From assembly GCA_023419875.1 (NCBI GenBank), contig JAEZXM010000105.1, positions 1-43,064 on the forward strand: a DNA stretch of 43,064 nt. Direction: 5' to 3'. This stretch comes from Pseudomonadota bacterium (GTDB taxonomy: Bacteria > Myxococcota > Myxococcia > Myxococcales > Anaeromyxobacteraceae). This document shows positions 714 through 41,020 of this stretch, piece after piece; the first letter of the stretch is position 1; each line of letters begins with the position of its first letter. Both the position numbers and the translations under genes were made by a program. The notes under the pieces were generated by a model that saw only the letters and a program-made list of their open reading frames with translations, had not been told where the DNA came from and did no database searches.

Positions 714-3700
714 CTAACGGCCGTGCGCACCTGTCGCGGGGACCGCTGTGAGGTCCCCGTGAACCTTCCTCACGAGATACTCGGTGAGGACAGCACGGAA
801 GTGCTCGTCGTTCAGGAACCGGGCGGCGATGTCGGCGTTCTTGTCCATCCGGTCCACGAACGCCCCCTCGATCCTTCCCTTCACGGCCAGGGCGAAGTTG
901 TCGATGGGGTTCACCGCCGCGTGCTGTTGCACGGTCTCGTCGGCCTTGAGCTCCTCGGCGACTGAGTCGATGGCAAGCTGGTCGGCCTTCTTGAAGTCCG
1001 TTCCGAAACGCTCGTTCAGGACATCGATGATCTCTGAGAGCAGCACCTCCTCGGGCTCCGAGCGCTTCATCCCAGCCTCGTCCGGCCCGTAGACTGGGAC
1101 CTCCTCGCCGGCGGTGAGGATGATGGGCGCATCTTCCCGGACGAGAGAGAGGCGGTAGTAGGCGAGCTTCGTCTCGGCATCGAGGGCGAGGGGCGTCTTC
1201 TTCGGGTCCGCCGGCAGCTTCGTCTCCAGGTAGCGGCCGAACGTGTACAACTTCTCCAGCGCCGAATCGGTGAACGGCAGGATCTGGGCGAGAAAGGCAT
1301 AGAGCCGGACGTAGGCCCCGAGCGCCGTCCGGAAGGCGTCTTGGACCTCCTGGTCCTTGGCCTTGAACCGATCCACCGCCGGGTCGAGATGGCGGTACAG
1401 CTCGGCGTGGTCGGCGCCGGTCTGAACCTTCCTCGGCCGGTAGAACACCTTACAGAACGCCTCCACCTCCGACGGCAGGAAGACCTGCGGCGCCTCCAGC
1501 TCGTGCTGGAGCTTGTAGAGGTTCTGCGGGTCGGGCGACTCCGCGACCTGAGTCTGCTCGTAGTACGGCTGGAAGGAGACCCTGATCTCCTCCTCGTCGT
1601 TCACGAAGTCGAGGACGAAGGTCTCCTCCTTGCCCCGGCAGGTCCGGTTGAGCCGAGAAAGGGTCTGAACCGCCTGGACGCCGGCCAGCCTCCTGTCCAC
1701 GTACATCGTGTGGAGGAGCGGCTGGTCGAAGCCGGTCTGGTACTTGTTGGCGACAAGGAGGACGTTGTAGGCGTCCGAGGCGAAGGCGGCGGGGAGCTGC
1801 TTCTCCCCGAGGCCGTCGTTCATGCCGGGCTCGGTATAGCTCTTCCCCGGGACGTCCGGGTCCTCGACGGTCCCCGAGAAGGCAACCAGCGCTCGGACGT
1901 CGGTGTACCCCTTCTCCTTGATGTACTTGTCGAACGCCTGCCGGTAGCGAACGGCGTGGAGGCGGGAAGCGGTGACCACCATCGCCTTGGCCTTCCCGCC
2001 GATCCGGTGCCTCACTCGGTTCCGGAAGTGCTCGACCATCACCTCGGTCCTCTGGGCGAGGTTGTGCGGGTGGAGCGAGACGAACCGAGCGAGCTGGGCG
2101 GCGGCCTCGCGCTTCGGGACCTTGGGATCGGCGGCGGTCGCCTTGAGGAGCTTCCAGTAGGTCTTGTAGGTCGTGTAGTTCTTGAGGACGTCGAGGATGA
2201 ACCCCTCCTCGATGGCCTGGCGCATCGAGTAGAGGTGGAAAGGACGGGGTTTCCCGTCCTCGCCTTTGCGGCCGAAGACCTCCAGGGTCTTCGCCTTGGG
2301 CGTCGCGGTGAAGGCGAAGAAGGACAGGTTCTTCTGCCGGCCGCGCGACTCCATCGCCCGCTTGAGGAGCTCCTCCGCGTCTTCCTCCGGGCTCGCCGCC
2401 TCGCTCGCCGTCTCCGCCTCGGCGGCGGCGAGAGAGGCTTCCTCCGGCGTCGCCGTCTTCGTCTTCTGCGTTCGGAGCACCTCCTTCAGCTTCGCTGCCG
2501 ACTCGCCGCCCTGGGAGCTGTGGGCCTCGTCCACGATCACCGCGTAGGCGCGGTCCGGGAGCGTGCCGATCTTCTCGGCCGCCACCGGGAACTTCTGGAG
2601 GGTCGTGACGATGATCGGGACGCCTTTCTCCAGCGCCTCAGCGAGCTGCTTCGAGTCCTGATCGACCTTCTGGACGAACCCCTCGGCGTGATCGAACTGA
2701 TGGACGGTGTCCTGGAGCTGCTTGTCGAGAACGCGCCGGTCGGTCACCACCACGACCGAGTGGAAGACTCGTGCATCTTCCCGGTGAAGCTCGGCCAGCC
2801 GGTAGGCGACCCAGGCGATGCTGTTGGACTTGCCGCTGCCGGCGGAGTGCTGGACGAGGTAGTTGTGGCCGGGCCCCTCCGTTCGTGCCGCCGCCTCCAG
2901 TTTCCGGACCGCGTCGAGCTGGTGGTATCGCGGGAAGATCATGGTCTCGACGATCTTCTTCTTCCCGCCCTCGACCTTCTCCTCCTCCTGGCGATGGACG
3001 AACCGGGCGAGGATGTCGAGGAAGCTGTCCCGCGCGAGCACCTCCTCCCAGAGATAGCTGGTCTTGTAGCCGGACTTCACCTCGGGGTTCCCGGCCGCCG
3101 TGCCGTTCCCCCGGTTGAAGGGGAGGAAGAACGTCTCCTGCTTCCGAAGCTCCGTTGTCATGTAGACGAGGTCTGGATCGACCGCGAAGTGGACCAGGGC
3201 TCGCTTCCCGAACCGGAAGACGGGGAGATGGGGATTGCGGTCGATCCTGTACTGCGCGATGGCATGCTGGACGTTCTGGCCGGTGAGCGGGTTCTTCAGC
3301 TCGACGGTGGCGATGGGGAGGCCGTTCAGCGAGAGGAGCATGTCGAGCGACTGCTCGCTCCCCGGATCGAACCTCACCTGCCGCGTCGCCGTGAGCCGGT
3401 TCTTGGCGTACTTCTCCAGGAGGTCCGGGTTCATGCCGTGGGACGGCTTGAAGGCGGCGACGCGGAGCCACTTCCCCATGAACCCGAAGCCGTGGCGAAG
3501 AACGTCGAGCATCCCTTGGTGATCAAGGGCATTCGCGAGCCACTCGATCACCGTCTTCCCGACGTTCTCGCCGTGCTGGCTCCTGAGCTGGCCCCAGGTC
3601 TCGCCCTGCGTCTCCGCGATGAACCGGAGCACCTCGGCCGCGTCGAGCGCCAGGGAGCGGTCGAAGCGGGTGGGGTCGCCCTTGTGCCAGCCGTGGCCGA

Positions 3701-3752
3701 GGAGGTGCTCCTCGATGGCGGTCTCGAAGGCGCGCTCGGTGTGCTGGGGCAT
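714..3752 (-). CDS. hsdR: Type I restriction endonuclease subunit R
   Basis: 1012 aa; nuclease motif D...LNGLPIATVELKN; helicase motifs QHSAGSGKS, DEAH, FTATP, TGFDQP, QTLSRLNR. Confidence 0.97.
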   Translation of the reverse strand: MPQHTERAFETAIEEHLLGHGWHKGDPTRFDRSLALDAAEVLRFIAETQGETWGQLRSQHGENVGKTVIEWLANALDHQGMLDVLRHGFGFMGKWLRVAAFKPSHGMNPDLLEKYAKNRLTATRQVRFDPGSEQSLDMLLSLNGLPIATVELKNPLTGQNVQHAIAQYRIDRNPHLPVFRFGKRALVHFAVDPDLVYMTTELRKQETFFLPFNRGNGTAAGNPEVKSGYKTSYLWEEVLARDSFLDILARFVHRQEEEKVEGGKKKIVETMIFPRYHQLDAVRKLEAAARTEGPGHNYLVQHSAGSGKSNSIAWVAYRLAELHREDARVFHSVVVVTDRRVLDKQLQDTVHQFDHAEGFVQKVDQDSKQLAEALEKGVPIIVTTLQKFPVAAEKIGTLPDRAYAVIVDEAHSSQGGESAAKLKEVLRTQKTKTATPEEASLAAAEAETASEAASPEEDAEELLKRAMESRGRQKNLSFFAFTATPKAKTLEVFGRKGEDGKPRPFHLYSMRQAIEEGFILDVLKNYTTYKTYWKLLKATAADPKVPKREAAAQLARFVSLHPHNLAQRTEVMVEHFRNRVRHRIGGKAKAMVVTASRLHAVRYRQAFDKYIKEKGYTDVRALVAFSGTVEDPDVPGKSYTEPGMNDGLGEKQLPAAFASDAYNVLLVANKYQTGFDQPLLHTMYVDRRLAGVQAVQTLSRLNRTCRGKEETFVLDFVNDEEEIRVSFQPYYEQTQVAESPDPQNLYKLQHELEAPQVFLPSEVEAFCKVFYRPRKVQTGADHAELYRHLDPAVDRFKAKDQEVQDAFRTALGAYVRLYAFLAQILPFTDSALEKLYTFGRYLETKLPADPKKTPLALDAETKLAYYRLSLVREDAPIILTAGEEVPVYGPDEAGMKRSEPEEVLLSEIIDVLNERFGTDFKKADQLAIDSVAEELKADETVQQHAAVNPIDNFALAVKGRIEGAFVDRMDKNADIAARFLNDEHFRAVLTEYLVRKVHGDLTAVPATGAHGR

Positions 3753-5083
3753 CAGGCAGCCTCCTGGGCGGCGACGTCGAGCTGGCCGGTGACGGCGGCG
3801 GTGACGAGGGCCTGGCGGTACTCGCGAAGTCCGTCGATGCTCTTGGCGGCGGCAGCTTCGAGATCATCGAGCTTGCCGACTTCGGCATCGAGATACGCGG
3901 CGATCTCATCCTGCTCTTGGCGGGGCGGTACGGGGATGAACGGGCGCTTGAGATCCCGGATGTTGATCCCCTTCACGGTCGCGCCGACGATGCCGGCCGC
4001 GAGCTGCGCCCACACCGGCGCCGACTGGACCGCATAGAGAAGCCATCGAGGATTGACGCCGGGAGCAGGCGCGATCCGGGCTGCATCCTGGGTGAGGTTC
4101 GCCCCGGCGACGTCCTCCGGGACCAGCGCGGCCATCCCGATGCTGCCACGGATTGCGTAGACGATGTCATCAGCCGCCAGACGCGACCGGGCGTACCCCG
4201 CCTCGATCTCGAGTGTGGTCCTGTGGAGCATCTCGGGACGGAGCGTCTCCCGCGTGCAGTTGCCGCTCTTCACGATGGATACGCCTTCGTCCACGTTGGG
4301 CCCGGGCAGAACGATCCCGTACATGATCGGCCGGCCGGGAGCCGTGAGGTACATTAGTCGCTTCACAAACCAGTGCTCGGGGATCGCGCCGAGTGGGGTG
4401 CCGGTGTTCCGGCGCTTTGCCTTGGACAGCACACCCACGACGACTTCGCCGATGAGGGCGGCGCGTCGCTCCTCGGCAACCGCGACGAGCTGTTCCTTCC
4501 TCTCGATGAGGGCGTCGATGGCGGTCGTCCTGTGGTCGAGGAAGTCGGCGATGGCTCGCTGCTCGGGAAGAGGCGGCACCGGGATCGCCAGCCTGCGAAT
4601 GTCTGGCATGTAGATCGTCTGGTGCGTGGACCCCATCATCATCCGCGCGAGCTCGGGCTTCATCGCCCGGAACGCCCAGAGCAGGTAGTCGGGGAGGAGT
4701 CGCGGTCCGCAGACCCAGTTCGCGAAGTCCTGGGTCGTGGCCATCGGTCTCGGCATAATGCCGGAGAAGCCGACGGACGCGGTTCTGGAGAGGACCACGG
4801 TCCCTGCCGGGAGCACTCTCGCAGCCGAGTTCGCGACGCCAAGGGCGCTGATCTTCTCCGCCGTGTCGCCGAGGTATTTCTGGTTCGCCTCCCGCAACTG
4901 CCAGACGTCCGCGAGGGAGAACCACGGGATCGTGCACTCCTCGGGAGTCCAGTATTCCGGGTGCTGCCGGCTCGGGGTATGTCCCGATTCGAGGCGCGCG
5001 ATCAGGCACACTTTCGCGCTGTCCCAATGAAGGGGGATGCGAGCGGCCCAGGGCAGCCCGGACGGCTTGGTCCGCACGCTCAC
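3752..5083 (-). CDS. hsdS: Type I R-M specificity subunit S (two TRDs)
   Basis: 443 aa; two conserved IPVPP..EQ..IA..LD helical spacers and C-terminal YRQALVTAAVTG; overlaps both hsdM and hsdR. Confidence 0.95.
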   Translation of the reverse strand: MSVRTKPSGLPWAARIPLHWDSAKVCLIARLESGHTPSRQHPEYWTPEECTIPWFSLADVWQLREANQKYLGDTAEKISALGVANSAARVLPAGTVVLSRTASVGFSGIMPRPMATTQDFANWVCGPRLLPDYLLWAFRAMKPELARMMMGSTHQTIYMPDIRRLAIPVPPLPEQRAIADFLDHRTTAIDALIERKEQLVAVAEERRAALIGEVVVGVLSKAKRRNTGTPLGAIPEHWFVKRLMYLTAPGRPIMYGIVLPGPNVDEGVSIVKSGNCTRETLRPEMLHRTTLEIEAGYARSRLAADDIVYAIRGSIGMAALVPEDVAGANLTQDAARIAPAPGVNPRWLLYAVQSAPVWAQLAAGIVGATVKGINIRDLKRPFIPVPPRQEQDEIAAYLDAEVGKLDDLEAAAAKSIDGLREYRQALVTAAVTGQLDVAAQEAA

Positions 5084-7167
5084 CCGAGCACCTCGCCCAG
5101 CATCCCTTGGATCTCCCCCTCCAGCTTTCGGATGTCCGCCTCGATATCCGCGAGCGGCCGGAGCGGCGTGAACTTGTAGAAGTGGCGGGTGAACGGGATC
5201 TCGTACCCGTCCCGGGTCTTCGACTCGTCGATCCAGGCGTCGGGGACGTGCGGCTTCACCTCCCGGTCGAAGTAGGTCTGGATGTCCTCCTTGCGCGGCA
5301 CGTTCTCGTAGTCGCGCAGCTCGGGGTCGGGCTCGAGGTTGCCGCTGGCGTCGCGGCAGACCTCGGCCGTCTCGTCCCGCTCGCCGAGCGCCGAGAGGAT
5401 CGCCTTCCGGACGGGCGCGGAGATCTTGCCGACGGGCTCGATGGCCGCATCGAGCGCCTCCTCGAACTGGCTGCGGTGCTTCCAGACACGGTCACCGCCC
5501 AGCCCCGCCAGTGCCGCGAGGAGCTTCTCCTGGAGCGTGCGCCCCTCGGTGGCTTCCAGCTCCCCGGCCTTCCCCTTCTTCTTGGTCCGGGCAAGGTTCT
5601 GGAACGCGGTCTCCTCCTTCAGGCACGCGATCCGCTCCGGCGTTGCCTGGAACGCGAGCCGCAGGGGGCGTTCCACCACGATCCGCCGATAGCCGAAGTC
5701 GTCGTTGTCGAAAATCCTGGACCGCTCCATCTCCCTGAACTCGCCGTACAGTTTCACGATCTCTTCGATCTGGGCTTTGGACAGCTCGTTCCGCTTGTTC
5801 CCGAGGCTCTTCTTCATCTTCTGGAAGAGGTCGGTGGCGTCGATGAGCTGGACCTTCCCCCGCCGTGCCTCTGGCTTCCGGTTGGTGATGACCCAGACGT
5901 AGGTGGAGATCCCGGTGTTGTAGAAGAGCTGGTCGGGCAGGCCGACGATGGCCTCCAGCCAGTCGCTCTCGATGATGTACCGCCGGATCTCGCTTTCCCC
6001 GGAGCCAGCGTCGCCCGAGAAGAGCGGCGAGCCGTTGAACACGATGGCGAGTCGGCTCCCGCCGCCCTTCACGGGCTTCATCTTCGAGAGCATGTGCAGG
6101 AGGAACAGCGTGGAGCCGTCGCTGATCCGGGGCAGGCCCGGCCCGAACCGGCCCGAGTAGCCCTGCGTCTCGTGCTCCGCCTGGATGGCCGCCTGCACCT
6201 GCTTCCAGTCGACGCCGAACGGCGGGTTGGAGAGCATGTAGTCGAACCGCGTGCCCGAGTGGCCGTCCTCGGTGAAGCTGTTGCCGGGGGTGATGCTCGA
6301 GGGGTTCTGCCCCTTGATCATCATGTCGGCCTTGCAGATGGCGAAGGACTCGTCGTTCAGCTCCTGGCCGAAGACCGAGAGCTTGGCCGCCGCGTTCAGC
6401 TCCCGGAGGTACTCTTCGGCGACCGACAGCATCCCGCCCGTTCCGCAGGCCGGATCGTAGAGCGAGCGCACGATGCCGGGCTTCTGGAGCGCGTCGTCGT
6501 CCTCGACGAAGAGGAGGTCCACCATGAGGCGAATCACCTCGCGAGGGGTGAAGTGCTCCCCGGCCGTCTCGTTCGACTGCTCCGCGAACCGCCGGATGAG
6601 CTCCTCGAAGATGAGCCCCATCGTGTGGTTCGGGACCGTGGCCGGGTGGAGGTCCACCTCCGCGAACCGCTGGAAGACGAGGTAGAGCAGGTTGTCGCGG
6701 GCGAGCTTCTCGATGTGCGTCGCGAACCCGAACCGCTCGAGGAAGATGTCTCGGGCATCCCGGGAGAAGCCCTGGATGTACTTGAGCAGGTTCGGGCCGA
6801 GGTGGTTTGGGTCACCCTTGAGCTTCTCGAAGTCCAGCTTCGAGACGTTGTGGAATGGGACGCCCGTGATCCGGTTCAGCACCGGGCCGAGGTTCTGCTC
6901 CTTCACCTTGCCGCCCTTCATCGCCTCGGCCTTGGCGAGCACCTTCGGCTTCGTGTCGCGGAGCACGCAGTCGAGTCGCCGCAGGACCGTCATCGGCAGG
7001 ATGACCTTGCCGTAGTCGGACTGGCGGTAGCTTCCGCGAAGAAGGTCGGCGATGGACCACAGGAAGTTCGCGATCCCGCTGAAACCGTTGAGCTTCTGGC
7101 CGTGATCGGCCGGAAGCTGGAGTTCCTGCTGGTCCTTGGTGGTCAAGGCTTGGGAAGGGCTGGCCAT
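5080..7167 (-). CDS. hsdM: Type I R-M N6-adenine methyltransferase subunit M
   Basis: 695 aa; GEHFTP, YDPACGTGGML (SAM binding), catalytic NPPF, LFYNTGISTY. Confidence 0.97.
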   Translation of the reverse strand: MASPSQALTTKDQQELQLPADHGQKLNGFSGIANFLWSIADLLRGSYRQSDYGKVILPMTVLRRLDCVLRDTKPKVLAKAEAMKGGKVKEQNLGPVLNRITGVPFHNVSKLDFEKLKGDPNHLGPNLLKYIQGFSRDARDIFLERFGFATHIEKLARDNLLYLVFQRFAEVDLHPATVPNHTMGLIFEELIRRFAEQSNETAGEHFTPREVIRLMVDLLFVEDDDALQKPGIVRSLYDPACGTGGMLSVAEEYLRELNAAAKLSVFGQELNDESFAICKADMMIKGQNPSSITPGNSFTEDGHSGTRFDYMLSNPPFGVDWKQVQAAIQAEHETQGYSGRFGPGLPRISDGSTLFLLHMLSKMKPVKGGGSRLAIVFNGSPLFSGDAGSGESEIRRYIIESDWLEAIVGLPDQLFYNTGISTYVWVITNRKPEARRGKVQLIDATDLFQKMKKSLGNKRNELSKAQIEEIVKLYGEFREMERSRIFDNDDFGYRRIVVERPLRLAFQATPERIACLKEETAFQNLARTKKKGKAGELEATEGRTLQEKLLAALAGLGGDRVWKHRSQFEEALDAAIEPVGKISAPVRKAILSALGERDETAEVCRDASGNLEPDPELRDYENVPRKEDIQTYFDREVKPHVPDAWIDESKTRDGYEIPFTRHFYKFTPLRPLADIEADIRKLEGEIQGMLGEVLG

Positions 7168-7290: not shown

Positions 7291-7968
7291 ATGACCAAGT
7301 TCGTCTTCCAACTCGCGGTGGTGTTCCTTCCTGGCCTGATCTGGTCCACCATCGTGGACCGGCTCTGCACCAGAACCCGTGCGAGGTCGGAATCGAGCAG
7401 GGTTCTCCGAGCCTTCGGGTTCGGTGTCGCGAGCTACTTCGTCTATTTCATCGTCTACTACGCTGGCTTCCGCCTCTGGTTCGGCGTGTGGCCGGCCGTA
7501 TTAGCGGGAATCACCTCGGCACCCGGCGTCGGGGATCTTCGCGTTCTGAGGCCCCAGGACATCCTGTTCACGAGCTTGCTGGCGGCAGTGTTGGCTGTGC
7601 TGTGGGCGGCCGGCTCGAATCGCAAGGTGTTCATGCGCCTTATGCAGTGGCTTCGCGTCACGAGGAAGTACGGAGACGAGGGCGTCTGGGAGTTCACCTT
7701 CAACAGAGGTACACCGTCTGTCGAGTACGTGAACGTCAGGGATTTCGAGAACCGAGTCGTTTACGCTGGGTTCGTGCAGGCGTTCTCGGAGGGCGGGCAA
7801 TATCGGGAGATCCTGCTCGAGCATGTCCGCGTCTCCGAACTCGACAGCGGGAGGCACCTCTTCGAGATGCCGGTGGTCTATCTGTCCCGAAAGCCAGACT
7901 CGCTTCACATCGAGTTCCCGTTCAAGCCGCAGCCAAAGAAGGAGGAGGACCAATGTCCGACGACCTGA
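7291..7968 (+). CDS. Membrane protein, probably DUF6338-like (about 3 N-terminal TM helices plus soluble beta-rich C-terminal domain)
   Basis: From ATG 7291: FLPG motif in the first TM, hydrophobic segments, then VWEFTF...YVNVRD...VYAGFVQAFSE...EILLEHVRV...VYL....IEF, the pattern I associate with DUF6338. Confidence 0.65.
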   Translation: MTKFVFQLAVVFLPGLIWSTIVDRLCTRTRARSESSRVLRAFGFGVASYFVYFIVYYAGFRLWFGVWPAVLAGITSAPGVGDLRVLRPQDILFTSLLAAVLAVLWAAGSNRKVFMRLMQWLRVTRKYGDEGVWEFTFNRGTPSVEYVNVRDFENRVVYAGFVQAFSEGGQYREILLEHVRVSELDSGRHLFEMPVVYLSRKPDSLHIEFPFKPQPKKEEDQCPTT

Positions 7969-8108
7969 AGCGTGTAGTGCGAATTGATGATGGCACGCTC
8001 AAGAAGGGCGGCGTGAACCGTGAGTATCAGATCCCGCAGCAGCAGCGCCCGCCAGACCCGCCACCGATGAGGCCGCCGCCTGCTCCTCCGTCCAAGAAGA
8101 GTGAGTAG
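7953..8108 (+). CDS. Pro-rich micropeptide 1 (51 aa)
   Basis: Strong RBS AAGGAGGAGG before ATG 7953; MSDDLKRVVRIDDGTLKKGGVNREYQIPQQQRPPDPPPMRPPPAPPSKKSE; paralogue directly downstream. Confidence 0.75.
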   Translation: MSDDLKRVVRIDDGTLKKGGVNREYQIPQQQRPPDPPPMRPPPAPPSKKSE

Positions 8109-8111
8109 GAA

Positions 8112-8276
8112 ATGGCACACGAGACTAAGGGCGGGGGACGCATCGACGGCGGAACGGATCAACGGGGTGGCGTGAACACGGGCTATCAGATCTCGCCTCA
8201 GCAGCGTCCACCTGACCCGCCTCCGATGAAGCCGGCGACCACGACGAACCCGGCGCCACAACCGAAGAAGGACTAA
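8112..8276 (+). CDS. Pro-rich micropeptide 2 (54 aa), paralogue of micropeptide 1
   Basis: ATG 3 nt after the peptide-1 stop; MAHETKGGGRIDGGTDQRGGVNTGYQISPQQRPPDPPPMKPATTTNPAPQPKKD; 23/32 identical to peptide 1 over residues 10-41, with many synonymous differences. Confidence 0.75.
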   Translation: MAHETKGGGRIDGGTDQRGGVNTGYQISPQQRPPDPPPMKPATTTNPAPQPKKD

Positions 8277-8286
8277 GGGAGGGAGG

Positions 8287-8670
8287 ATGGCCAAGAACAA
8301 CCGCATCTTCATCAGTTTCGCCGCCGAGGACGCCGACTACCGCACGATGCTCGTCGGTCAGGCTCGGAACGGGAGGTCGCCGTTCGACTTCATCGACATG
8401 TCCGTGAAACAGCCCTGGGACGAGAAGTGGAAGACGAACTGTCGCACGAAGATCAAGGGGTGCGACGGGCTCATCGCGCTCATCAGCTGGAGGACGATGC
8501 ATGCAGATGGAGCGCGCTGGGAGATAGGCTGCGCCAACGACGAGAGGGTCCCTGTTCTCGGCGTCCAGATCAACTCGAATGCGCCCGCCGCAGTGCCTCC
8601 TGAGCTCTACGGCAAGCCCGTGATCGCGTGGACTTGGGACGGGATCGCGACATTCATCAACGGACTGTGA
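8287..8670 (+). CDS. Stand-alone TIR domain protein (ThsB/MTH538-like)
   Basis: 127 aa; RIFISFAAED, KIKGCDGLIALIS, WEI (catalytic Glu), VPVLGV, WTW; RBS GGGAGGGAGG. Confidence 0.9.
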   Translation: MAKNNRIFISFAAEDADYRTMLVGQARNGRSPFDFIDMSVKQPWDEKWKTNCRTKIKGCDGLIALISWRTMHADGARWEIGCANDERVPVLGVQINSNAPAAVPPELYGKPVIAWTWDGIATFINGL

Positions 8671-9233
8671 TGGAATCCGAGCAAGCCAAGTCGACGGCGC
8701 CGGACTCGCGCGACGAGAAGGACGCGGAGAGCGAGGCCAAGCGCTGTGCGTCGTCCGTTCTGCTGGGGGTGAGGCGGGGGGAGTACGGGGAGTCCTTCAG
8801 CCAGCACCGACTCGAGCAGTACAAGCTCTACGTCGAGATGGCCGATCGCGTGAGCAGCCGGCGGATGACGGCTAACTCGTTCTTCGTGACGATCAACACG
8901 GCGCTCGTGGCCTTCCTCGGTCTCGCGGTCGCGAAGGACGAGACGGAGCGCCTCGGCTGGTACGTGGCGGTATCCGTAGCGGGGGTAACGGTGAGCGCGC
9001 TGTGGTACTTCCTGATCCGGTCGTACCGGGATCTCAACTCGGCCAAGTTCAAGGTTGTCCACCTCGTCGAGTCGGGGCTGCCGCTCAGGCTCTATGACGC
9101 GGAGTGGGAGATGGTGGGCCGAGGCGAGAACCCGAAGCTCTATCTGCCCGTTACCCACATCGAGACGAAGGTCCCCTTGCTGTTTATCTCTATCTACGTC
9201 GGGCTCGCTGCGTACGTGCTCGTGTTCACGTAG
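8670..9233 (+). CDS. Small 3-TM membrane protein, resembles the RipA/8xMP (octameric membrane protein) putative pore family
   Basis: TGATG overlap with the TIR gene; motifs LEQYKLYVEMADRVSSRR..ANSFFVTINT, WYFLIRSYRDLNSAKFKVVHLVE..LP, EW, TxIE..VP; three hydrophobic helices. Confidence 0.7.
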   Translation: MESEQAKSTAPDSRDEKDAESEAKRCASSVLLGVRRGEYGESFSQHRLEQYKLYVEMADRVSSRRMTANSFFVTINTALVAFLGLAVAKDETERLGWYVAVSVAGVTVSALWYFLIRSYRDLNSAKFKVVHLVESGLPLRLYDAEWEMVGRGENPKLYLPVTHIETKVPLLFISIYVGLAAYVLVFT

Positions 9234-9240
9234 CCCTCGC

Positions 9241-9831
9241 CTACCGGCGGCGGGGCTTCCTCATCGCCTTTCTGATCTGCTTGGCGATCCCGTCCCACGT
9301 CCAGTTGATAACTGGGACCCCAAACAGCGCTCCCGGCATTCGTCCCTTGTCGGCTCTGTCTATGTAGACGCCGAACATCGGGACGCCCTCCTCCTTTGCG
9401 ACCTTGATCTCCCAGAGGACACCCTCGGCGGCGTGGGTACCATCACCGATGAGCACGATCACGACGTCGCAACCCTTGATGCGGGGCCGTGTCTGCGTCT
9501 TCCAGGCGTTGTCGAACGGCTTGTGGAGCGAGAAGTCGGCCAACTCGAAAGGTGTATCCGAGTTGCGGCTCTGCCCGACGAAGAGGTTGCGTGCGGCCTC
9601 GTCCTCCACCGCGAAGCTGATGAAGGCCCGTGGCTTCCGTACCGCCGCGGTACTCCTCCCTGCTCGCGGCTTCTTCTTCGGGGGCTCGCCGGTTGGAGGT
9701 GGAAGGCCCGGCGCTTTCTCTGCCCGAGTAGCCGCGATCCATACGATTGCCGCACCGAGAAGCAGCAAAGGAATCGCAAGCGCTCGAAGCAGCGCCCGAG
9801 GGTCGGCGCGTAGCCTATCGAACCAGGTCAT
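9241..9831 (-). CDS. TIR domain protein with N-terminal transmembrane anchor and Pro/Lys-rich linker
   Basis: 196 aa; TM ALAIPLLLLGAAIVWIAA; then AFISFAVED...IKGCDVVIVLIG...WEI...WTWDGIA; aligns without gaps to the 8287-8670 TIR. Confidence 0.85.
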   Translation of the reverse strand: MTWFDRLRADPRALLRALAIPLLLLGAAIVWIAATRAEKAPGLPPPTGEPPKKKPRAGRSTAAVRKPRAFISFAVEDEAARNLFVGQSRNSDTPFELADFSLHKPFDNAWKTQTRPRIKGCDVVIVLIGDGTHAAEGVLWEIKVAKEEGVPMFGVYIDRADKGRMPGALFGVPVINWTWDGIAKQIRKAMRKPRRR

Positions 9832-10260: not shown

Positions 10261-12867
10261 TCATGCGGATGGTTTCGGACGCCGGCGAAAGAGCGGAGTC
10301 CAATTGGCCCCACGCTCCCAGAGCGCGGTCACGGTGACCGTAGGGACGTTGTAGTAGAAGACGAGGAGCTTTCCGGTGTTCCCGTATCCAAGAAGGCGAT
10401 CGTGAAGCTTGTCCTGGGTCCACGGGTCCCGCCGCCGCATGGTCTTGGGGCGCAGGATCGCAGCGGTCTGCTCCTGAAGGAACGCCTTTAGAGAGTCACG
10501 CTCCCTGAGATCGGTGAACACTTCCCGTCCCGTGAACATCTCGTCGCGGTCCGAGACGACGTCGGGGGGCGGCAGCAACGACACGTTCCTCAGGCCATGC
10601 TTATCGAGGAACCTGCGGAGAGTCGTAAGGCCCGAACGCCTGCCCATTGAGAACGCGATGGTCACTTGCCGGTTTCTGAACCCGGCGACGCGGTCACGCG
10701 ACAAATGGGATGTGAGGCGCTCGTGGAGCGCGGTATCCGGCAGCTTGAGCCACTGAATGAATGCCGTCTTGGTGTGTCCCGCCGCACCACAGAAGTCATC
10801 CCACAAGACAATCTGCCCGCGCCCGCGCGACTCAAGCGCAAGCTCGAGCTGCATCACTCGACGCCGGAGCTTCGCAGGGATGTCATTCATGAGGTATGTC
10901 AGGAGCGCGCTGCTGTCCCCAGTTGCGCCGAGCGGGCACACTGCACGGACCTCACCGTTAGCGAGCGCTGAGTTCATGATGCGCTCGAGTGAACGCGCGA
11001 AGTACCGTCGGTCCTTGAAGTCAACGTGTTCGAGCATCCGAAGCGCCGCGCGAGCCATCTTCTCCGACTGGAACTGCCTAAGGAAGGCAGCAATGGACGC
11101 AGCAGTGATTGGCCCTCTACCCGGGACCTGGTACTGACCGAAGGTGTCGTGGAGGCTCTCGATCCGGGGCCACGCGGCCTTCAGGAAGTGCTCGAGCGAG
11201 GCGGCCTGGTAGGTCCTGACGCTCGATGCCTTGACGTTCGACGCCTCATCCCGACGCAGAGCAGCGCCCTTCTTCGCCAGCGTTTCTTCTGCAACCTTGA
11301 TCTCTTCGGGATGCAGCTTGGCGCGCCGGAACGCGGATGAGTCGACGGGCTGCCCGTAGTTACGCATGATGACGGAACGAGCAGCGATAAACACGGGAAG
11401 GACGCATTCTTCGGGTGCGAACACGTACCCTTCGGCACTCGATATGCGGCGACCGGCCTCGGCCCGTTCCCCGCCGAACGCTGTTGCGGCGAGCTTGAAG
11501 TCCTCTGCCGTGTCACCAACGAACGCGTGTCGGTCCATGCCGGACCGGGTGAGGTCCGGGACGTTTACAGCGGGTGGGATGAGGCGAAGTGGCTGGGCAT
11601 GTGCGCCAAGAAGCTTCGCGAAGCGAGTCGCTTTCTCCGTGATCTCGCGCTCGAGCTTGCCGGATCGCACAGCATCGCGCAGCGAAAGCCATAGGGTCAG
11701 GTCCTCGCCCTTGGGGCTCTTCTCTGAGTTCTTGATGAAGAAGGCGCGCTTGGGCAGGCGTCGCTCGCGAAGCATCCGCGCATGCAGTAGCTGGCGATCT
11801 CCAACGAGTTCATCGTCCGAGAGCGACAGCCAGTCCCGGATCGAGGTGAGGCTCCCGCGTCTAGCCTTCTCGGCCAACAGGCGGCGTGCGACGAGCTCGA
11901 GTGCTTGGACCTTGTGGTGCTGGTAGACCTTCTCGAACAAGAAGTTCTTCGTGACCGCGAGCTCGTGGAGCGCACGAGATCCTGGCGCGCTCAAGACCAA
12001 CGTCGTTATGAGGCCGCTCTTTGGGGGAGCCCACTTGGCGTAGTCGCGGGGGAGCTTGGCCACGGGAACGCTGACCGTGTGGACCTTCTCGATGATGCGC
12101 TTCACGTCGACCGCGGACGGGATGCCCGCCATGGCGCTGTCGCGCGGCATGTAGTCAAGCTTGTCCGCATCGAACGGTCCGTTCAGCAAGAGCGAGAGGT
12201 ACTCCTTCCCTGGGTCGACTGCCCCCGCGACGACGTAGCCCGCTATGCGTCGGGTCGCGTCATCGACGTCCTTGATGAAATCGGCTCCTACCTCGGTCGC
12301 GCCCAGAAAACCGCGAAACGCACGCGAACGGATGAAGACAGCGGCGAACGCCTCGCTGGGAGAGGGTACCTTGCGGGTCTTGTACTCCGTCGTGATCCTG
12401 GAGATGAGCTCCCTCACGCCAGGGAGTTCCGCGACGAGCGGCTCCGAAACATGACTGAACGCGGAATGGCCGCAGTCGTGGACCAGCGCGGCGATCCGAA
12501 GCAGCTTCGTGGTCACGTCATCAACGATGCGTTCTCCTGCAAGCCCCGAGTTGCGCTCCAGGCCGTCGATGAGCTGCTGCATCTGATGGAGCACGCCGAG
12601 GGAGTGCTCGAGCCGGCTATGGCCGGCGCCAGGAAACACCCAATGAGCGACACCGAGCTGCCGGATGTACCTGAGCCGCTGAAGCAGCAAGGTGTCGAGG
12701 AGAGCCGCCTCCCAGCTGAAGAGACGGATCGTTCCCCAGACCGGGTCGTTGATAACCTTAGGGCGCGCATGGGAGTGGCCAGCACGCAGACGCTCCGTAT
12801 GCGGAGCGACCCACTGGTCACAGAGGCGTTCGAGCTCAGCGGTGAGGGCAGCGGCCGGGTCCGCCAC
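10261..12867 (-). CDS. HD-superfamily phosphohydrolase (SAMHD1/YdhJ dNTPase-like) fused to a C-terminal phosphoribosyltransferase-like domain
   Basis: N-term DPVWG, LQRLRYIRQLG, HSRLEHSLG, AALVHDCGHSAFSH, DADKLDY, KVYQH. C-term FLRQF, GDSSALLTY, IVLWDDFCG, LGYG..GKLLVFYYNVP..T...LW....WTPLFRR. Start placed at in-frame GTG 12867, just past the upstream stop (ORF track start 12915). Confidence 0.85.
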   Translation of the reverse strand: MADPAAALTAELERLCDQWVAPHTERLRAGHSHARPKVINDPVWGTIRLFSWEAALLDTLLLQRLRYIRQLGVAHWVFPGAGHSRLEHSLGVLHQMQQLIDGLERNSGLAGERIVDDVTTKLLRIAALVHDCGHSAFSHVSEPLVAELPGVRELISRITTEYKTRKVPSPSEAFAAVFIRSRAFRGFLGATEVGADFIKDVDDATRRIAGYVVAGAVDPGKEYLSLLLNGPFDADKLDYMPRDSAMAGIPSAVDVKRIIEKVHTVSVPVAKLPRDYAKWAPPKSGLITTLVLSAPGSRALHELAVTKNFLFEKVYQHHKVQALELVARRLLAEKARRGSLTSIRDWLSLSDDELVGDRQLLHARMLRERRLPKRAFFIKNSEKSPKGEDLTLWLSLRDAVRSGKLEREITEKATRFAKLLGAHAQPLRLIPPAVNVPDLTRSGMDRHAFVGDTAEDFKLAATAFGGERAEAGRRISSAEGYVFAPEECVLPVFIAARSVIMRNYGQPVDSSAFRRAKLHPEEIKVAEETLAKKGAALRRDEASNVKASSVRTYQAASLEHFLKAAWPRIESLHDTFGQYQVPGRGPITAASIAAFLRQFQSEKMARAALRMLEHVDFKDRRYFARSLERIMNSALANGEVRAVCPLGATGDSSALLTYLMNDIPAKLRRRVMQLELALESRGRGQIVLWDDFCGAAGHTKTAFIQWLKLPDTALHERLTSHLSRDRVAGFRNRQVTIAFSMGRRSGLTTLRRFLDKHGLRNVSLLPPPDVVSDRDEMFTGREVFTDLRERDSLKAFLQEQTAAILRPKTMRRRDPWTQDKLHDRLLGYGNTGKLLVFYYNVPTVTVTALWERGANWTPLFRRRPKPSA

Positions 12868-12869
12868 GA

Positions 12870-13283
12870 CTACTCGAGCTGCTGAGCGAAGTACCGTCCG
12901 AGCTGCTCGAACCACTTGCCATCAGGAAGTCGCTTCAGCTGAGCCTTCGCGTCAGATGGCCCGATCTTGAACTGGGCCTTCTCCAGGTCCGGATTCATCA
13001 GAGACAGCACGCGATCCTGCTCACCCTCGAGCAGCATCTCGCTCGCCTCGGAGCACACCCCGAAAATGGGGTCCACGTGGAAGGTCAGATTCCGGAGGAG
13101 GCCCCGACGCGCAGTCTTCTTCGCCTTCTCGACAGTCGAGACGAAGGCCCGGTGGAAGTCCTCTCCCTCAGCGGGGAAGTCCTTCTTGTAGATCCGGAGT
13201 CCGAACAGGAGCCCTCGGTAGAAGGTCACTCTGTCCATAGGCGATGCCCCCTCGCTGCGTCCTGGCTTCGATTCCACGCTCAC
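12870..13283 (-). CDS. Hypothetical protein (122-137 aa), possibly winged-helix
   Basis: Fills the space between the MerR and HD genes with 18-nt and 2-nt gaps; GAGG-type RBS before both GTG 13283 and ATG 13238. Confidence 0.7.
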   Translation of the reverse strand: MSVESKPGRSEGASPMDRVTFYRGLLFGLRIYKKDFPAEGEDFHRAFVSTVEKAKKTARRGLLRNLTFHVDPIFGVCSEASEMLLEGEQDRVLSLMNPDLEKAQFKIGPSDAKAQLKRLPDGKWFEQLGRYFAQQLE

Positions 13284-13301: not shown

Positions 13302-13757
13302 CTACTCACCGTGTGCGTTGACGGCCGCCAAGCGGCTCGTAACGTCCCGCCGAATCGTCTTCATCTCGACGATGAAGCGGAACGCGTACTGCCCGGTCGT
13401 GAGCTCCTCCAGCAGCCGGCGTGGTGAGCTGCTGAAGTAGACCTCCGTGCCGTCAGTGACCAGGAAGCGAGCGTTCGAGGGCTCGCCCCGTACCTGTGGA
13501 TGGGCCCGCTGTAGCGCCTGAAGCGACCGCTTAAGCCTGGCAACGCCCACGCCTGCCTTCAGGAGTTGCGCGACGGTGCGCAGCATGACGAGGTCCACGA
13601 AGGAGTACATCCGCGGACTGCCTCTTCCTCGCCGGCTCGTGTGGGTCGGGACGACGACCCCCGTCCGGCAGAGGTAGTCGACCATCGCCGTCGACAGGCC
13701 CGCGACCTCGGCCGCGAGACCGATCTCGTACCCCTGGCGAGTCGATCCGCTACCCAT
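13302..13757 (-). CDS. MerR-family HTH transcriptional regulator
   Basis: GYEIGLAAEVAGLSTAMVDYLCRTGVVVP...GRGSPRMYSFVDLVMLRTVAQLLKAGV, then LVTDG.EVY and GQ..F, typical of a MerR-like subgroup. Confidence 0.88.
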   Translation of the reverse strand: MGSGSTRQGYEIGLAAEVAGLSTAMVDYLCRTGVVVPTHTSRRGRGSPRMYSFVDLVMLRTVAQLLKAGVGVARLKRSLQALQRAHPQVRGEPSNARFLVTDGTEVYFSSSPRRLLEELTTGQYAFRFIVEMKTIRRDVTSRLAAVNAHGE

Positions 13758-14755: not shown

Positions 14756-15014
14756 CGCTCGTCATGGGCAGGCGGCACAGAGGCGTCGCGCGCTGCTATC
14801 CGAGGCCAGAGCGGGGCTTAGCCTGCTCGTGATGGATCGAGGGGTTCCGCTTGTCCGCCGAGCGAGCCTGGTCCGGCGCTGCACCGACCAGATGCTGACG
14901 TCGCCCCGCCGTCGTTGACGAGCGGGCGGAGCGTGGGCTCGCCTGAAAGAGGTGGCGCGGGGGCTTTCGCGCATGCTCGCTCGAGGACGACGTGGTGGGA
15001 AACTTGAGCAGCGC

Positions 15015-16541
15015 ATGGACGGCCCTCAGAATCATCATGTGGAGCCGATCACGACAAACATCTCGGGGATCAATCCAACCTTCAAGGACTCCGAGTTGGT
15101 ACTCGGGCTGGTCGCGCCGGTCGGGACGGACTTCGATAAGTTCCATCACTTGCTCACGAGGCGGTTGGCGGAATTCGGCTATGCCGTTAACCCGGTGAAG
15201 CTGAGTGCCTTGGCCGACAACTTCCAAGCGAAGACCCCGGCTCCTCCCGCAGGCGCTTCTACGGAGGCGATACGCATCAACCGGCTGATGCATGCCGGCA
15301 ACTATCTTCGCTTCGAGTCACGTCGGGGCGAGTTCTTGGCGCTTGCTGCCGCAGCCGACATTCGAGCGCACAGAAGAGATGGTGAGGTTCTCCAGAAGAC
15401 GGCCCACGTCGTTCGTTCACTGAAGCATCCGGATGAAGTCCGTGCGCTGCGACGAATCTACGGTGCCGGGTTCTACCTGGTCGGCGTGACGGTGAACGAG
15501 AAGCAGCGACGCGAGTACCTGTGCGATCACAAAGGGTGCCGACCGGACGAAGTTGCCGAGCTCCTGCGCAGGGATGAGCACGAAGAAGACCCTGGGTACG
15601 TCGATGAGGAGGGTCAGAACTACGGACAGAGAACGCGGGACACCTTCCAACTCGCGGACGTCTTCATCCCGCTTGACTCCGAGGACCGGCTCGACCGCTT
15701 CCTCAAGCTGGTGTTCGGCTGCCCATTCGAAACACCCACGCCGGAGGAGTACGCGATGTACCTGGCGTTCGGCGCAGCCCTTCGGTCCGGTGACCTGTCT
15801 CGCCAGGTGGGAGCGGTCGTGGTTACCGAGAAGGGGGATCTGGTCAGCGTCGGAGCGAATGACGTCGCTCGCGCCGGTGGCGGTCTCTACTGGCCGGGAA
15901 AAGGGGACGAGCGCGACTTCGTTCGCAACGAAGACTCGAACGAGGTGCAGCGAGACGTGATTCTCCAAGACGTGCTCAAGCGCCTACTTCCCGAGGGTCA
16001 GGATGAGGCCTCGTGGATCGAGCGGGGCAGGAAGCTCCTCAAGCCTAGCCCTCTGATGGACATCACGGAGTATGGCCGGGCGACCCACGCGGAAATGGAG
16101 GCGCTGCTCTCGTGCGCGAGAAACGGCATTCCCACCCGGAACGCGACTCTCTTCTCGACCACGTTCCCATGCCACAACTGCGCGAAGCACATCATCGCGT
16201 CCGGTGTCAGGCGGGTCGTGTACGTTGAGCCGTACCCGAAGAGCCAAGCGGCGAGACTTTTCAGTGATTCGATCAGGTTAGCGGGGGTAACGAAGGGCAC
16301 CCGTCGAGTTCTGTTCGAGCCGTTCGTGGGCATCGGGCCCAGACGATTTCTTGACCTCTTCTCTGTCGGTCTCTCATCGGGTACAAGTGCCGCTCGGAAG
16401 AAGGGAGGCGCGGTGATTCCCTGGAGTCCCGAGAAGGGAGTTGTCAGGGTCCCCTGTCTTCCGAACTCGTACCTAGATCGAGAAAAGTTGGCGGAGAAGG
16501 AACTCTCCGCGCGCACGACTCCACCGAGGGAGCCCAGATGA
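15015..16541 (+). CDS. Anti-phage dCTP deaminase (P-loop kinase-like domain + deaminase; Dcd/AvcD type)
   Basis: SELVLGLVAPVGTD, SLKHPDEV, GQRTRDTFQLADVF, LRSGDLSRQVGA, HAEMEA and FPCHNCAKHII (Zn-deaminase), YVEPYPKS. Start uncertain (14952-15015). Confidence 0.93.
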   Translation: MDGPQNHHVEPITTNISGINPTFKDSELVLGLVAPVGTDFDKFHHLLTRRLAEFGYAVNPVKLSALADNFQAKTPAPPAGASTEAIRINRLMHAGNYLRFESRRGEFLALAAAADIRAHRRDGEVLQKTAHVVRSLKHPDEVRALRRIYGAGFYLVGVTVNEKQRREYLCDHKGCRPDEVAELLRRDEHEEDPGYVDEEGQNYGQRTRDTFQLADVFIPLDSEDRLDRFLKLVFGCPFETPTPEEYAMYLAFGAALRSGDLSRQVGAVVVTEKGDLVSVGANDVARAGGGLYWPGKGDERDFVRNEDSNEVQRDVILQDVLKRLLPEGQDEASWIERGRKLLKPSPLMDITEYGRATHAEMEALLSCARNGIPTRNATLFSTTFPCHNCAKHIIASGVRRVVYVEPYPKSQAARLFSDSIRLAGVTKGTRRVLFEPFVGIGPRRFLDLFSVGLSSGTSAARKKGGAVIPWSPEKGVVRVPCLPNSYLDREKLAEKELSARTTPPREPR

Positions 16542-23274: not shown

Positions 23275-23572
23275 GGCCGCATTCGCCGAATACACCGAGA
23301 GTCGTGGGCACGCCGGGCGGGGCCAGCCCGCTCTTGCGGCTGCGAGTGAACGTCGGCAGGGCACGAGACGCCCTGCCCCGCGACACTCGAGCGCCCCTCC
23401 CACCTGGGCGCTAGCCGCTGGCGTGATCCGGACAGGTCGTGTCGAGTGGAGGTCGCCTTCCGCAGCGTGGGCATGCTCGGGCCGTGAACGCCAACCCCGC
23501 GTACCCCGCGTCCGCCCTCGAGCGCGATCCTGCTACACTCCCCTTCGCCAGAGCTCTTGCGGGGGAGGGACC

Positions 23573-40206: not shown

Positions 40207-40235
40207 GCCGGGCCCCTCCCCCCTGGCCCGGACGA

Positions 40236-40267
40236 GAGGCCCGGTCGGCGCGAGCCGGCCGGGCCTC
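40236..40267 (+). terminator. GC-rich hairpin after norB copy 2
   Basis: GAGGCCCGGTCGGC-GCGA-GCCGGCCGGGCCTC: 14-bp stem, GNRA loop, weak U tract. Confidence 0.55.
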
Positions 40268-40295
40268 GTGCTGTCGTGCCCCGCCCAGGGCGCAC

Positions 40296-40326
40296 TTGAC
40301 CATTCATGGACACGCGCGTACATGAA
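40296..40326 (+). promoter_or_regulatory. Sigma70-type promoter with overlapping palindromic operator of the toxin-antitoxin operon
   Basis: TTGACC-17 nt-TACATG; inverted repeat TTCATG (40303-40308) / CATGAA (40321-40326). Confidence 0.55.
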
Positions 40327-40331
40327 AGGAC

Positions 40332-40607
40332 ATGAAGCTCCGCACGAGTTCTTCCCGGCTCAAAGCCAAGATGGGCCAGTACATGCGCGCGGTGCGCGCT
40401 GGCAAGGAAGTCGTGATCACCGACCGGGACCGGCCGGTGGCCCGGCTGCTTCCTTACGACGAGCCTGCGCCGACCGGTGCCGAGCTGGTGATCGCCCGAC
40501 CGAAGGACCCGGACGCCCCTCCGCTCGGAGCGGTCGAGGTGCGGGCGATCGTCTACCGCGGCAGGGCGACGACCGAGCTGCTCGTGGAAGACCGGGCGCG
40601 GCGATGA
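40332..40607 (+). CDS. Phd/YefM family antitoxin
   Basis: LKAKMGQYMRAVRAGKEVVITDRDRPVARLLP. Confidence 0.9.
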   Translation: MKLRTSSSRLKAKMGQYMRAVRAGKEVVITDRDRPVARLLPYDEPAPTGAELVIARPKDPDAPPLGAVEVRAIVYRGRATTELLVEDRARR

Positions 40608-41020
40608 TCGCCCTGCTCGACACCAGCGTCGTGCTGCGGAAGCTCTTCGGCGAGAAGGGCTCCCTCGCCGAGTGGTCGCAGGTGTCGGAGGCCTTCGCCT
40701 CCCGGCTCCTCCTCGTGGAGCTCGGCAGGACGATCGACCGGAGCCGTCTCGCGGGTGACATCGACGACGCCCAGGTGGAACACCTGCACCGGGAGGCGCG
40801 ACACCTCCTGCGGTCCATCGACGTCGTCGCCCTGAGCGAGCCCATCCTCATCCGTGCCGCCTCCCCGATGCCGACCACACTGGGCTCGCTGGACGCGATC
40901 CACCTCGCGACCGCGCTCGAGCTCTCGGCTGCGGGGAAGACGTCACTCTTCCTGGCCACGCACGACACGCAGCTCGCTCGCGCGGCACGTGCATCGGGCC
41001 TCGAGGTGTGCGGCGCCTGA
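40604..41020 (+). CDS. vapC: VapC (PIN domain) toxin
   Basis: ATGA overlap; LLDTSVVLR, LVE, LGSLDAIHLATA, THDTQLARAA. Confidence 0.9.
   Translation: MIALLDTSVVLRKLFGEKGSLAEWSQVSEAFASRLLLVELGRTIDRSRLAGDIDDAQVEHLHREARHLLRSIDVVALSEPILIRAASPMPTTLGSLDAIHLATALELSAAGKTSLFLATHDTQLARAARASGLEVCGA

Follow-up and report, generated by a model that had tools for sequence, protein, structure and literature searches.

The subject of this analysis is a 43,064-nucleotide (nt) stretch of bacterial DNA, hereafter the window (contig JAEZXM010000105.1 of assembly GCA_023419875.1, Anaeromyxobacteraceae, positions 1 to 43,064 of the forward strand), and within it two tandem small open reading frames (ORFs), peptide A and peptide B, which lie between the gene for a membrane protein of the DUF6338 family and genes for a TIR protein and an 8xMP membrane protein. 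No part of bacterial genomes is less well charted than the small proteins. An earlier examination of the bare sequence (the original prediction) had proposed that the two ORFs are paralogous micropeptides under purifying selection, which annotation pipelines would miss, and had considered that they might be processed at [K/R]GG into ligands, serve as decoy substrates or sensors for a phage protease, or be antitoxins or plugs of the neighbouring membrane proteins. The features that make up the core of the locus are, in window coordinates:

7291..7968, + strand: DUF6338 membrane protein, 225 amino acids (aa) if counted from the ATG at 7291; the open frame extends back to a GTG at 7243.
7939..7949, + strand: Shine-Dalgarno-like run AAGGAGGAGGA, within the 3′ end of the DUF6338 gene and 3 nt ahead of the ATG of peptide A.
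7953..8108, + strand: peptide A, A-type RVVRIDDGTLKKGGVNREYQIPQQQRPPDPPPMRP, 51 aa from an ATG start.
7980..8075, + strand: core motif of peptide A, residues 10-41, as defined by family alignments.
8112..8276, + strand: peptide B, B-type GGGRIDGGTDQRGGVNTGYQISPQQRPPDPPPMKP, 54 aa from an ATG start, 3 nt past the peptide A stop.
8139..8234, + strand: core motif of peptide B, residues 10-41, as defined by family alignments.

The two peptides align without gaps from Met1, with 21/36 identities in BLASTP (E 3e-7 for this single comparison) and 30 invariant columns in a MAFFT alignment. A codon script reproduced exactly the earlier hand count, according to which 23 of the 32 residues at positions 10-41 are identical and 9 of these 23 are encoded by synonymous codons. 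Over the same 32 codons, nucleotide identity at the first, second and third positions is 27, 25 and 17. The ratio of nonsynonymous to synonymous substitution rates (dN/dS) calculated by the NG86 method between A and B is 0.128 (50 codons; dN 0.268; dS 2.09, which is saturated), and the five further peptide pairs for which it could be computed give values of 0.18-0.37; in two more pairs, dS is too saturated for a ratio to be given. At the RNA level, the folding energy of positions 7930..8300 equals that of shuffled sequences (z -0.02), and nowhere in the window does an Rfam family score at threshold. Because of the synonymous differences at third positions and the lack of an RNA-structure signal, selection is taken to act on the peptide sequence and not on the DNA or RNA. 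The window DNA is 69% GC, a composition at which gene picking by third-position GC content is misleading, and Pfam scans of long ORFs were used instead. Both peptides are hydrophilic, basic and Pro-rich, and no signal peptide or leader was found on them. The AlphaFold2 (AF2) model of peptide A lacks regular secondary structure (mean predicted local distance difference test score, pLDDT, 69). On the best explanation, A and B are both translated, into small cytoplasmic proteins that are intrinsically disordered.

Peptides A and B belong to a family whose core motif of about 30 residues, derived from 150 sequences, reads (L/I)xEGxΦxKGG(V/I/Q)Nxx(Y/F)QIxxRPPxPxPM(K/R)P; proteins of approximately 50-75 aa that carry it were counted as members, and both window peptides are among them. 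A wider profile search, in which 8000 candidates were scored, found at least 144 small proteins at E<=1e-3, and a profile run exhaustively against 1.84 billion representatives returned 47 matches at the same threshold, 45 of which are credible. P0024 (1528 aa) and P0055 (1466 aa) were rejected as giant, repetitive, low-complexity false positives (here and below, P, L and G numbers designate proteins, loci and genomes, respectively). Most of the 150 family sequences are short, 123 being of 80 aa or less and 27 being longer. The linker between YQI and RPP comprises two residues in 127 of the 142 parsed sequences and four residues in the remaining 15, the minority type to which the window peptides belong, and the Met behind the Pro run is conserved in 124 of the 142. 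The termini are variable and basic, usually with a K-rich tail. A word-indexed search added 14 close homologues of 49-60 aa that are of two kinds, the A-type (RVVRIDEGTLKKGGVNREYQIP...) and the B-type (GGGRLxxVTSxRGGVNxxYQIP...); P0003 and P0005-P0007 are close homologues of peptide A, at 86-92% identity, and P0004, P0008 and P0010-P0015 are B-type homologues of peptide B. In three further cases, an A-type and a B-type sequence share a contig (equal size of the longest contig being the proxy), and therefore the tandem pair itself appears to be conserved in a clade. Homologues of the kind on which the original prediction had staked its case thus exist, and the same frame stays open in them while the DNA diverges.

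The expectation that annotation pipelines would miss such peptides holds in one respect only: several sources list them as 'hypothetical protein', yet they have no model in any family library, none in Pfam, NCBIfam, PADLOC or PHROGs matching them. The peptide profile gave no match at E<=10 in a search of solved structures, peptide A gave none by tblastn against phage and plasmid collections, and a search of a protein atlas was uninformative (best feature score 0.77). In 400 genomes of the window's phylum, the only real match to a narrow peptide profile is the window itself; a sole weak match inside a 2358-aa frame was discarded as not real. A search for loci with the peptide profile, confirmed by tblastn, yielded none in genome contigs, none in viral contigs and one in metagenome contigs (L004). 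Since confirmation by tblastn probably sets too strict a standard for a query as short and Pro-rich as peptide A, a degenerate DNA pattern of the motif was adopted. As for the proposed processing at [K/R]GG, it finds no support, KGG being placed inside a motif that is conserved on its two sides. A ubiquitin-like or Pup-like tag was also considered and rejected: GG stands at residues 19-20 of 51 and 54, and 20 conserved residues follow it in all members.

The protein encoded upstream of the peptides matches Pfam PF19865 (DUF6338) with an E-value of 3.3e-7 and 30.5 bits, against a gathering cut-off of 26.5. It has at least 184 homologues at E<=1e-10, and most of the close ones were already annotated with PF19865. 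The family is also matched in Haloferax volcanii, used as a control genome, and so extends to archaea. In all three genome loci obtained with the degenerate DNA pattern, the motif ORF lies directly behind a gene for a homologous DUF6338-like membrane protein. Searches made with DUF6338 only, which are unbiased regarding the peptide, gave L015 and L016 (401-genome class sample), L020-L023 (viral contigs) and L024 and L026-L028 (391-genome order sample), and in all 10 of these loci a small Pro-rich ORF abuts or overlaps the DUF6338 stop. Scored with a hidden Markov model (HMM) of the motif, for which unrelated segments of the same scans reach at most 12.2 bits, seven of them carry a clear motif at 23-47 bits and three are degenerate, namely L026 (14.5 bits), L016 (9.3 bits) and L023, which has no HMM match and whose ORF, read by eye, is DTLKKGG...PPSKPRPEPKP, with KGG and a Pro-rich tail. 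Taken together, the peptide lies directly 3′ of the DUF6338 gene or overlaps it, on the same strand, in the window and in 13 other loci, and 16 putative shared contigs, identified by the longest-contig proxy, connect the DUF6338 and peptide tables. About 1% of the genomes sampled contain the cassette.

Behind the canonical DUF6338 genes of L008, L010 and L017 lies a small Pro-rich ORF of looser pattern. The ORF of L017, a weak match with a canonical DUF6338, is 44 aa long and of a different type, and was excluded as a motif member; at this locus (genome G613, 1971..2573 and 2089..2223), the 3′ end of the DUF6338 gene and the 44-aa Pro-rich ORF (MAKEPIPPPTR...KPKPPPLPPPKKQ) are tandemly doubled. 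L009 (genome G093), in which the DUF6338 gene is broken by a TGA and no convincing Pro-rich ORF was seen, was left out of the counts.

The geometry of the two genes is also characteristic. In the window, the end of the DUF6338 gene and the beginning of the peptide A ORF share 16 nt; elsewhere, a 4-nt ATGA/GTGA overlap is found in three loci and a TAAATG junction with zero gap in one, and an SD-like (Shine-Dalgarno-like) sequence precedes most peptide starts. Because such overlap or abutment of start and stop is a signature of translational coupling, the peptide and DUF6338 are presumably made together. The conserved partner of the peptides is the upstream DUF6338 protein, and not the TIR or 8xMP protein.

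Gene order also bears on the proposal that the peptides act in cis as arrest or leader peptides, RPPDPPPM stalling ribosomes in a manner dependent on elongation factor P and thereby tuning the downstream TIR and 8xMP genes. PPD, DPP and PPP are strong ribosome-stalling triplets, the conserved stretch of about 30 residues up to PPPM has approximately the length of the ribosomal exit tunnel, the tail past the motif is variable, and the ORFs are closely packed ahead of the TIR gene. However, whereas a gene to be regulated is found immediately 3′ in the window (TIR, at 10 nt), the two-gene cassettes of L007, L016 and L020-L023 end with the peptide: in L007, about 370 nt separate the peptide from the following same-strand gene, a conserved neighbour also present in L006, and the flanks of L016 and L020-L023 consist of housekeeping or opposite-strand phage genes. 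Many members moreover read RPPAPAP, a weak staller, the motif also stands at the N-terminus of proteins of 100-236 aa, one of them an enzyme, and the RNA shows no excess structure. A cis-acting role of this kind appears very unlikely.

What the partner looks like was approached by structure prediction. The AF2 model of DUF6338, built on a 69-sequence alignment (mean pLDDT 77.8), has three to four membrane helices, with long hydrophobic helices at residues 2-26, 34-64 and 88-110, followed in the C-terminal part by a helix and five bent strands at about 129-208 (pLDDT 83-96 in 151-210). Submitted to Foldseek, residues 124-212 match Sm/LSm chains (best E 3.2e-4), and with VIA the best match of the C-terminal domain is 5vsu_F (Z 9.5, root mean square deviation 2.3 Å over 75/77 residues), with 29 chains at Z>=8; among the 50 matches shown, the best 40 consist almost entirely of Sm, LSm or Hfq chains. 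As modelled, the C-terminal domain of DUF6338 is an Sm/LSm-like (SH3-like) barrel. Because K/R-rich loops flank the helices, the positive-inside rule applied to the sequence places this domain in the cytoplasm, a compartment that a leaderless peptide would then share with it. LSm domains of the EDC3 type bind short linear motifs, and Sm/LSm folds usually assemble into rings; by analogy, the Sm-like domain of DUF6338 may also form rings. In many DUF6338 homologues (P0086, P0091, P0124, P0131, P0140, P0144, P0150, P0153 and P0158), the final strands of the Sm-like domain contain the conserved segment YLARPP(D/E)x(I/L)HIEFPY, an RPPD-like sequence that resembles the RPPD of the peptides; the window protein reads YLSRKPDSLHIEFPF at this place.

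The cassette formed by DUF6338 and the peptide is found in varied surroundings. L020-L023 are (pro)phage contigs in which it is often encoded on the opposite strand to the phage genes, beside genes for a beta-helix tail protein, antirepressor, Arc, Mu F, tape-measure, tail-chaperone, Mu portal and Schlafen-like proteins; these positions are moron-like. Elsewhere, it adjoins a GyrB/ParE-type gene (L006, L007) or an AMP-binding enzyme gene (L005, L015), or is flanked by HisG and EPSP synthase (L016). Most loci contain DUF6338 and the peptide without TIR or 8xMP, and the link of the peptides to TIR is facultative. DUF6338 plus peptide is therefore considered the minimal unit, and a mobile one. 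In an alphaproteobacterial metagenome-assembled genome, a BrnT/BrnA toxin-antitoxin pair lies directly behind the cassette (L006, 6283..6748), and in L010 (genome G106) a PIN_10/DUF433-HTH pair adjoins it. As far as sequence can tell, gene layout and contexts would fit a type II-like toxin-antitoxin pair.

The motif is not restricted to small proteins. In the 27 family sequences longer than 80 aa, it is carried at the N-terminus, at the C-terminus or in the middle, and four such proteins have PHROG domains: P0034 is a GH19 endolysin-like protein (PF00182, phrog_181), and others match phrog_419, phrog_25433 and phrog_19048. A related-locus search with P0034 found nothing. In L018 and L019, two phage contigs of IMG/VR, the motif gene immediately precedes that of the head maturation protease (phrog_530) and forms part of a module of terminase, portal, head-morphogenesis, protease, decoration and capsid genes. 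Because its phage carriers are diverse and have no DUF6338 gene in the stretches fetched, the motif behaves as a portable short linear motif common to host cassettes and phage proteins.

These phage copies raise the question of whether the motif is originally a phage peptide for interactions in head assembly or maturation, mimicked by the host as a bait, so that a phage protein, such as the prohead protease, binding or cleaving the bait would free DUF6338 to kill or seal the cell. The diversity of the longer carriers would suit such a role, as would the beginning of the motif, (L/I)xE-G, and the place next to the protease in two of the three phage loci, the one hint also for the decoy or sensor suggested by the original prediction. 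However, L018 and L019 share their head genes and hence amount to roughly one observation, the third phage-like locus, L004, has no protease near the motif gene, and an endolysin that bears the motif fits a role in head assembly poorly. We regard this scenario as unlikely, although it is not negligible.

Direct detection of related peptides comes from the literature. A full-text search on motif strings, 8xMP and the general theme returned nothing relevant on the peptide family, and the only printed precedent found for DUF6338 is a study in Pseudomonas stutzeri ATCC 14405 (PMC10433244, Anal Chem 2023). There, 'operon 9' comprises a 194-aa DUF6338 protein (Pstu14405_RS12030) followed by the small-ORF-encoded peptides (SEPs) SEP1, SEP5 and SEP2; these three novel Pro-rich ORFs, of 36, 47 and 41 aa, were detected by digest-free mass spectrometry with 85, 114 and 44 peptide-spectrum matches and 98-100% coverage. 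With tblastn, the authors obtained no homologues of the SEPs, and they proposed that the genes are strain-specific and arose de novo. Judged by eye, SEP2 has GGVN, then QRP, then a Pro run, and looks like a degenerate version of the window motif. Operon 9 gives independent support that peptides of the DUF6338-tandem layout are translated. Together with the dN/dS values and the family of at least 144 members, the mass spectrometry of these related P. stutzeri peptides (PMC10433244) upholds the claim that peptides A and B are real and under purifying selection.

A composition of this kind also invites comparison with stand-alone effectors, namely analogues of the proline-rich antimicrobial peptides that enter the ribosomal tunnel, for which DUF6338 would be the exporter or immunity protein. 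The peptides are, as said, hydrophilic, basic and Pro-rich, and their Tyr-to-Arg-Pro-Pro-x-Pro spacing presumably resembles that of apidaecin-type insect peptides. An antimicrobial role for Pro-rich SEPs is raised by the P. stutzeri authors themselves (PMC10433244). However, the window peptides have no signal or leader peptide and the cassettes no dedicated ABC exporter; the motif is internal and not at a free C-terminus, it is fused to intracellular-looking phage proteins, and it has no sequence match to any solved chain. Such a function is hardly probable.

Downstream and upstream of the DUF6338-peptide block, the window contains the following genes:

8287..8670, + strand: ThsB-like TIR protein, 127 aa (Pfam PF08937, E 4e-8; PADLOC ThsB models).
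8628..9233, + strand: 8xMP membrane protein, 201 aa (Pfam PF24838, E 7e-43), overlapping the TIR gene by 43 nt.
9241..9831, - strand: second ThsB-like TIR protein, 196 aa (PF08937, E 2.4e-10; PADLOC ThsB models), convergent.
714..7167, - strand: complete type I restriction-modification system, with HsdR at 714..3752, HsdS at 3752..5083 and HsdM at 5080..7167.
10261..12915, - strand: protein with an HD/dGTPase-like domain at the N-terminus and a PRTase-CE domain at the C-terminus, 884 aa (PRTase-CE: PF24390, E 6e-22; PADLOC PRTase_III-A, E 1e-17).
13302..13757, - strand: MerR-family regulator, at the right edge of the island.
14952..16541, + strand: cytidine-deaminase/MafB19-like deaminase-domain protein, 529 aa, at the right edge of the island.

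The first TIR gene starts 10 nt past peptide B, behind a GGGAGGGAGG run, and belongs to the same operon-like block. The membrane protein at 8628..9233 had been labelled SLATT; its Pfam family is 8xMP, and no SLATT model in Pfam or NCBIfam matches it. With the type I restriction-modification system immediately upstream of the DUF6338 gene and a probable defence gene, that for the HD and PRTase-CE protein, convergent with the TIR genes, the block DUF6338-pepA-pepB-TIR-8xMP sits in a defence island. The N-terminal 65 residues of the second TIR protein consist of a hydrophobic helix followed by a Pro-rich basic linker, PGLPPPTGEPPKKKPR, similar in composition to the peptide tails, and an N-terminal hydrophobic helix is present in the TIR protein of G106 as well (L010, 2287..2835). 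Beyond the right edge of the island lie housekeeping genes (sirohaem and sulfite reductase, MatE, NorB and a sigma-54 activator). A patatin-like phospholipase of 825 aa (23423..25900, + strand) and a PIN-domain ORF (40058..41020, + strand) are outside the island.

Two other genomes bear on the association of TIR and 8xMP with the peptides. In G118 (L031/L037), TIR, 8xMP and a convergent TIR have the same geometry as in the window, and neither DUF6338 nor a motif ORF is found within 11 kb; therefore, TIR and 8xMP form a separable pair, which looks like an undescribed TIR plus membrane-effector module. In G106, a distant member of the window's phylum (L010, L030), 8xMP, TIR, a Pro-rich ORF and DUF6338 lie on one strand, and because the same four kinds of genes recur there, though differently ordered, a functional link between the two modules is possible. 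This recurrence, with the gene order DUF6338, pepA, pepB, TIR and 8xMP in the window, is what would speak for a Thoeris-like system in which the peptides are precursors cut at [K/R]GG into ligands of TIR or 8xMP. However, most DUF6338-peptide loci have neither TIR nor 8xMP in the 1.5-6 kb read per side, G118 has the TIR-8xMP-TIR genes alone, and conservation on either side of KGG is at odds with a cleavage that discards one part. The PADLOC scan, in addition, found no ThsA-type effector; a weak ThsA1 STALD match (E 0.014) falls on the second TIR protein, with none on the other six proteins scanned. Of the explanations considered, this one is the least probable.

The reading that we favour, and hold to be probable, sees in the peptides cytoplasmic partners or regulators of DUF6338 that dock by their motif on its Sm-like domain, within a mobile cassette that would serve defence, exclusion or a toxin-antitoxin system. 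As cognate small partners, peptides A and B would be produced with DUF6338 through translational coupling, their Pro-rich motif would dock on the cytoplasmic Sm/LSm barrel, and docking would set the state of the membrane protein, the peptide serving as an antitoxin-like plug or as a bait. In the window cassette, the peptide is duplicated and joined to the TIR and 8xMP pair. The analysis shows that the peptides are coding, under selection and members of a family, and it shows the pairing of the genes, their coupling geometry, the modelled fold and the genomic contexts. Among the mechanisms put forward by the original prediction, that of antitoxins or plugs acting on the neighbouring membrane proteins fits best, with the correction that the partner is the upstream DUF6338.

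Several points weigh against this reading. Physical binding between peptide and DUF6338 is presumed, as are the direction of regulation and the defence function of the cassette; a prediction of the complex, with a 69-row alignment for DUF6338 and a 39-row alignment for peptide A, scored 0.04 (mark 0.32) and counts neither way. No natural fusion of DUF6338 and peptide occurs among the 120 homologues listed or the 47 profile matches. DUF6338 has no match in PADLOC or PHROGs, so that its role in defence rests on context. No DUF6338 was found in the fetched stretches around phage motif genes, and because phage motif proteins occur without it, the target of the motif could be another conserved protein. 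The pairing count includes several loci from related alphaproteobacteria, which are not independent, and the motif HMM E-values come from tiny databases, which is why bit scores are quoted. Finally, the likeness of the P. stutzeri peptides (GGVN, DGIN or NGAN, then (Q/I/V)RP, then a Pro run to KK) was established by eye only.

A more elaborate version of peptide control over DUF6338, which we consider improbable, would accommodate the phage copies. The motif would be a portable docking peptide contested by phages and hosts, and free bait expressed by host and prophage cassettes would keep a ring-forming, Sm-domain-gated DUF6338 pore shut. Phages would attach the motif to head-module proteins, endolysin and other cargo; the pore would open when a phage factor captures or cleaves the bait, or when the bait decays once host translation stops, and the attached TIR and 8xMP proteins may also be armed. 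If true, DUF6338 would gain its first function, and defence guarded by micropeptides would be a new class. Under the favoured reading, DUF6338 gains a testable model as a membrane protein whose cytoplasmic Sm-like domain would be controlled by a Pro-rich peptide. Should the defence or exclusion part of that reading be true, it would reveal a new sensor-effector logic and would explain a 30-residue tag on many phage proteins.

Set beside known systems, the window has features of several. With Thoeris, it shares ThsB-like TIR proteins encoded beside membrane proteins, whereas ThsA (SIR2, SLOG or Macro) is missing, and the peptides and DUF6338 are Thoeris components in no library searched. Like Sm, LSm and Hfq proteins, the modelled DUF6338 domain combines an N-terminal helix with five bent strands, and it superposes on SmF, LSm and SmAP (Z 8-9.5); it differs by its fusion to membrane helices and by a sequence identity of 8-18%. 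A short, conserved, Pro-rich sequence of tunnel length is presumably common to the window peptides and to arrest peptides such as SecM, MifM and the RAPP type, but most loci of the window family lack a regulated downstream gene and the motif also occurs inside larger proteins. Insect proline-rich antimicrobial peptides differ from the window peptides, which have neither a secretion signal nor a free C-terminal pharmacophore. With toxin-antitoxin, abortive-infection and superinfection-exclusion cassettes, the DUF6338-peptide cassette shares the compact, translationally coupled arrangement of a membrane protein and a small partner, as well as sites in defence islands, at moron positions and between housekeeping genes and a patchy distribution, yet it shows no sequence kinship to the systems in PADLOC, NCBIfam and PHROGs.

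The closest known case is operon 9 of P. stutzeri (PMC10433244). Like the window, it has same-strand, tandem, paralogous, basic Pro-rich ORFs after DUF6338, there of less than 50 aa and with PPPPKK-like tails; it differs by having three peptides instead of two and much more degenerate motifs. In contrast to the 'strain-specific' verdict of the P. stutzeri authors, the pairing and the sharp motif of the window type are conserved across distant bacteria and prophages, and because the pairing is conserved, an old, mobile two-gene module is favoured over strain-specific de novo genes. Measured against this precedent, the layout itself had been seen once before, and the novelty lies in the family and its motif, in the obligate pairing, in the Sm-like fold predicted for the partner and in the copies carried by phages.

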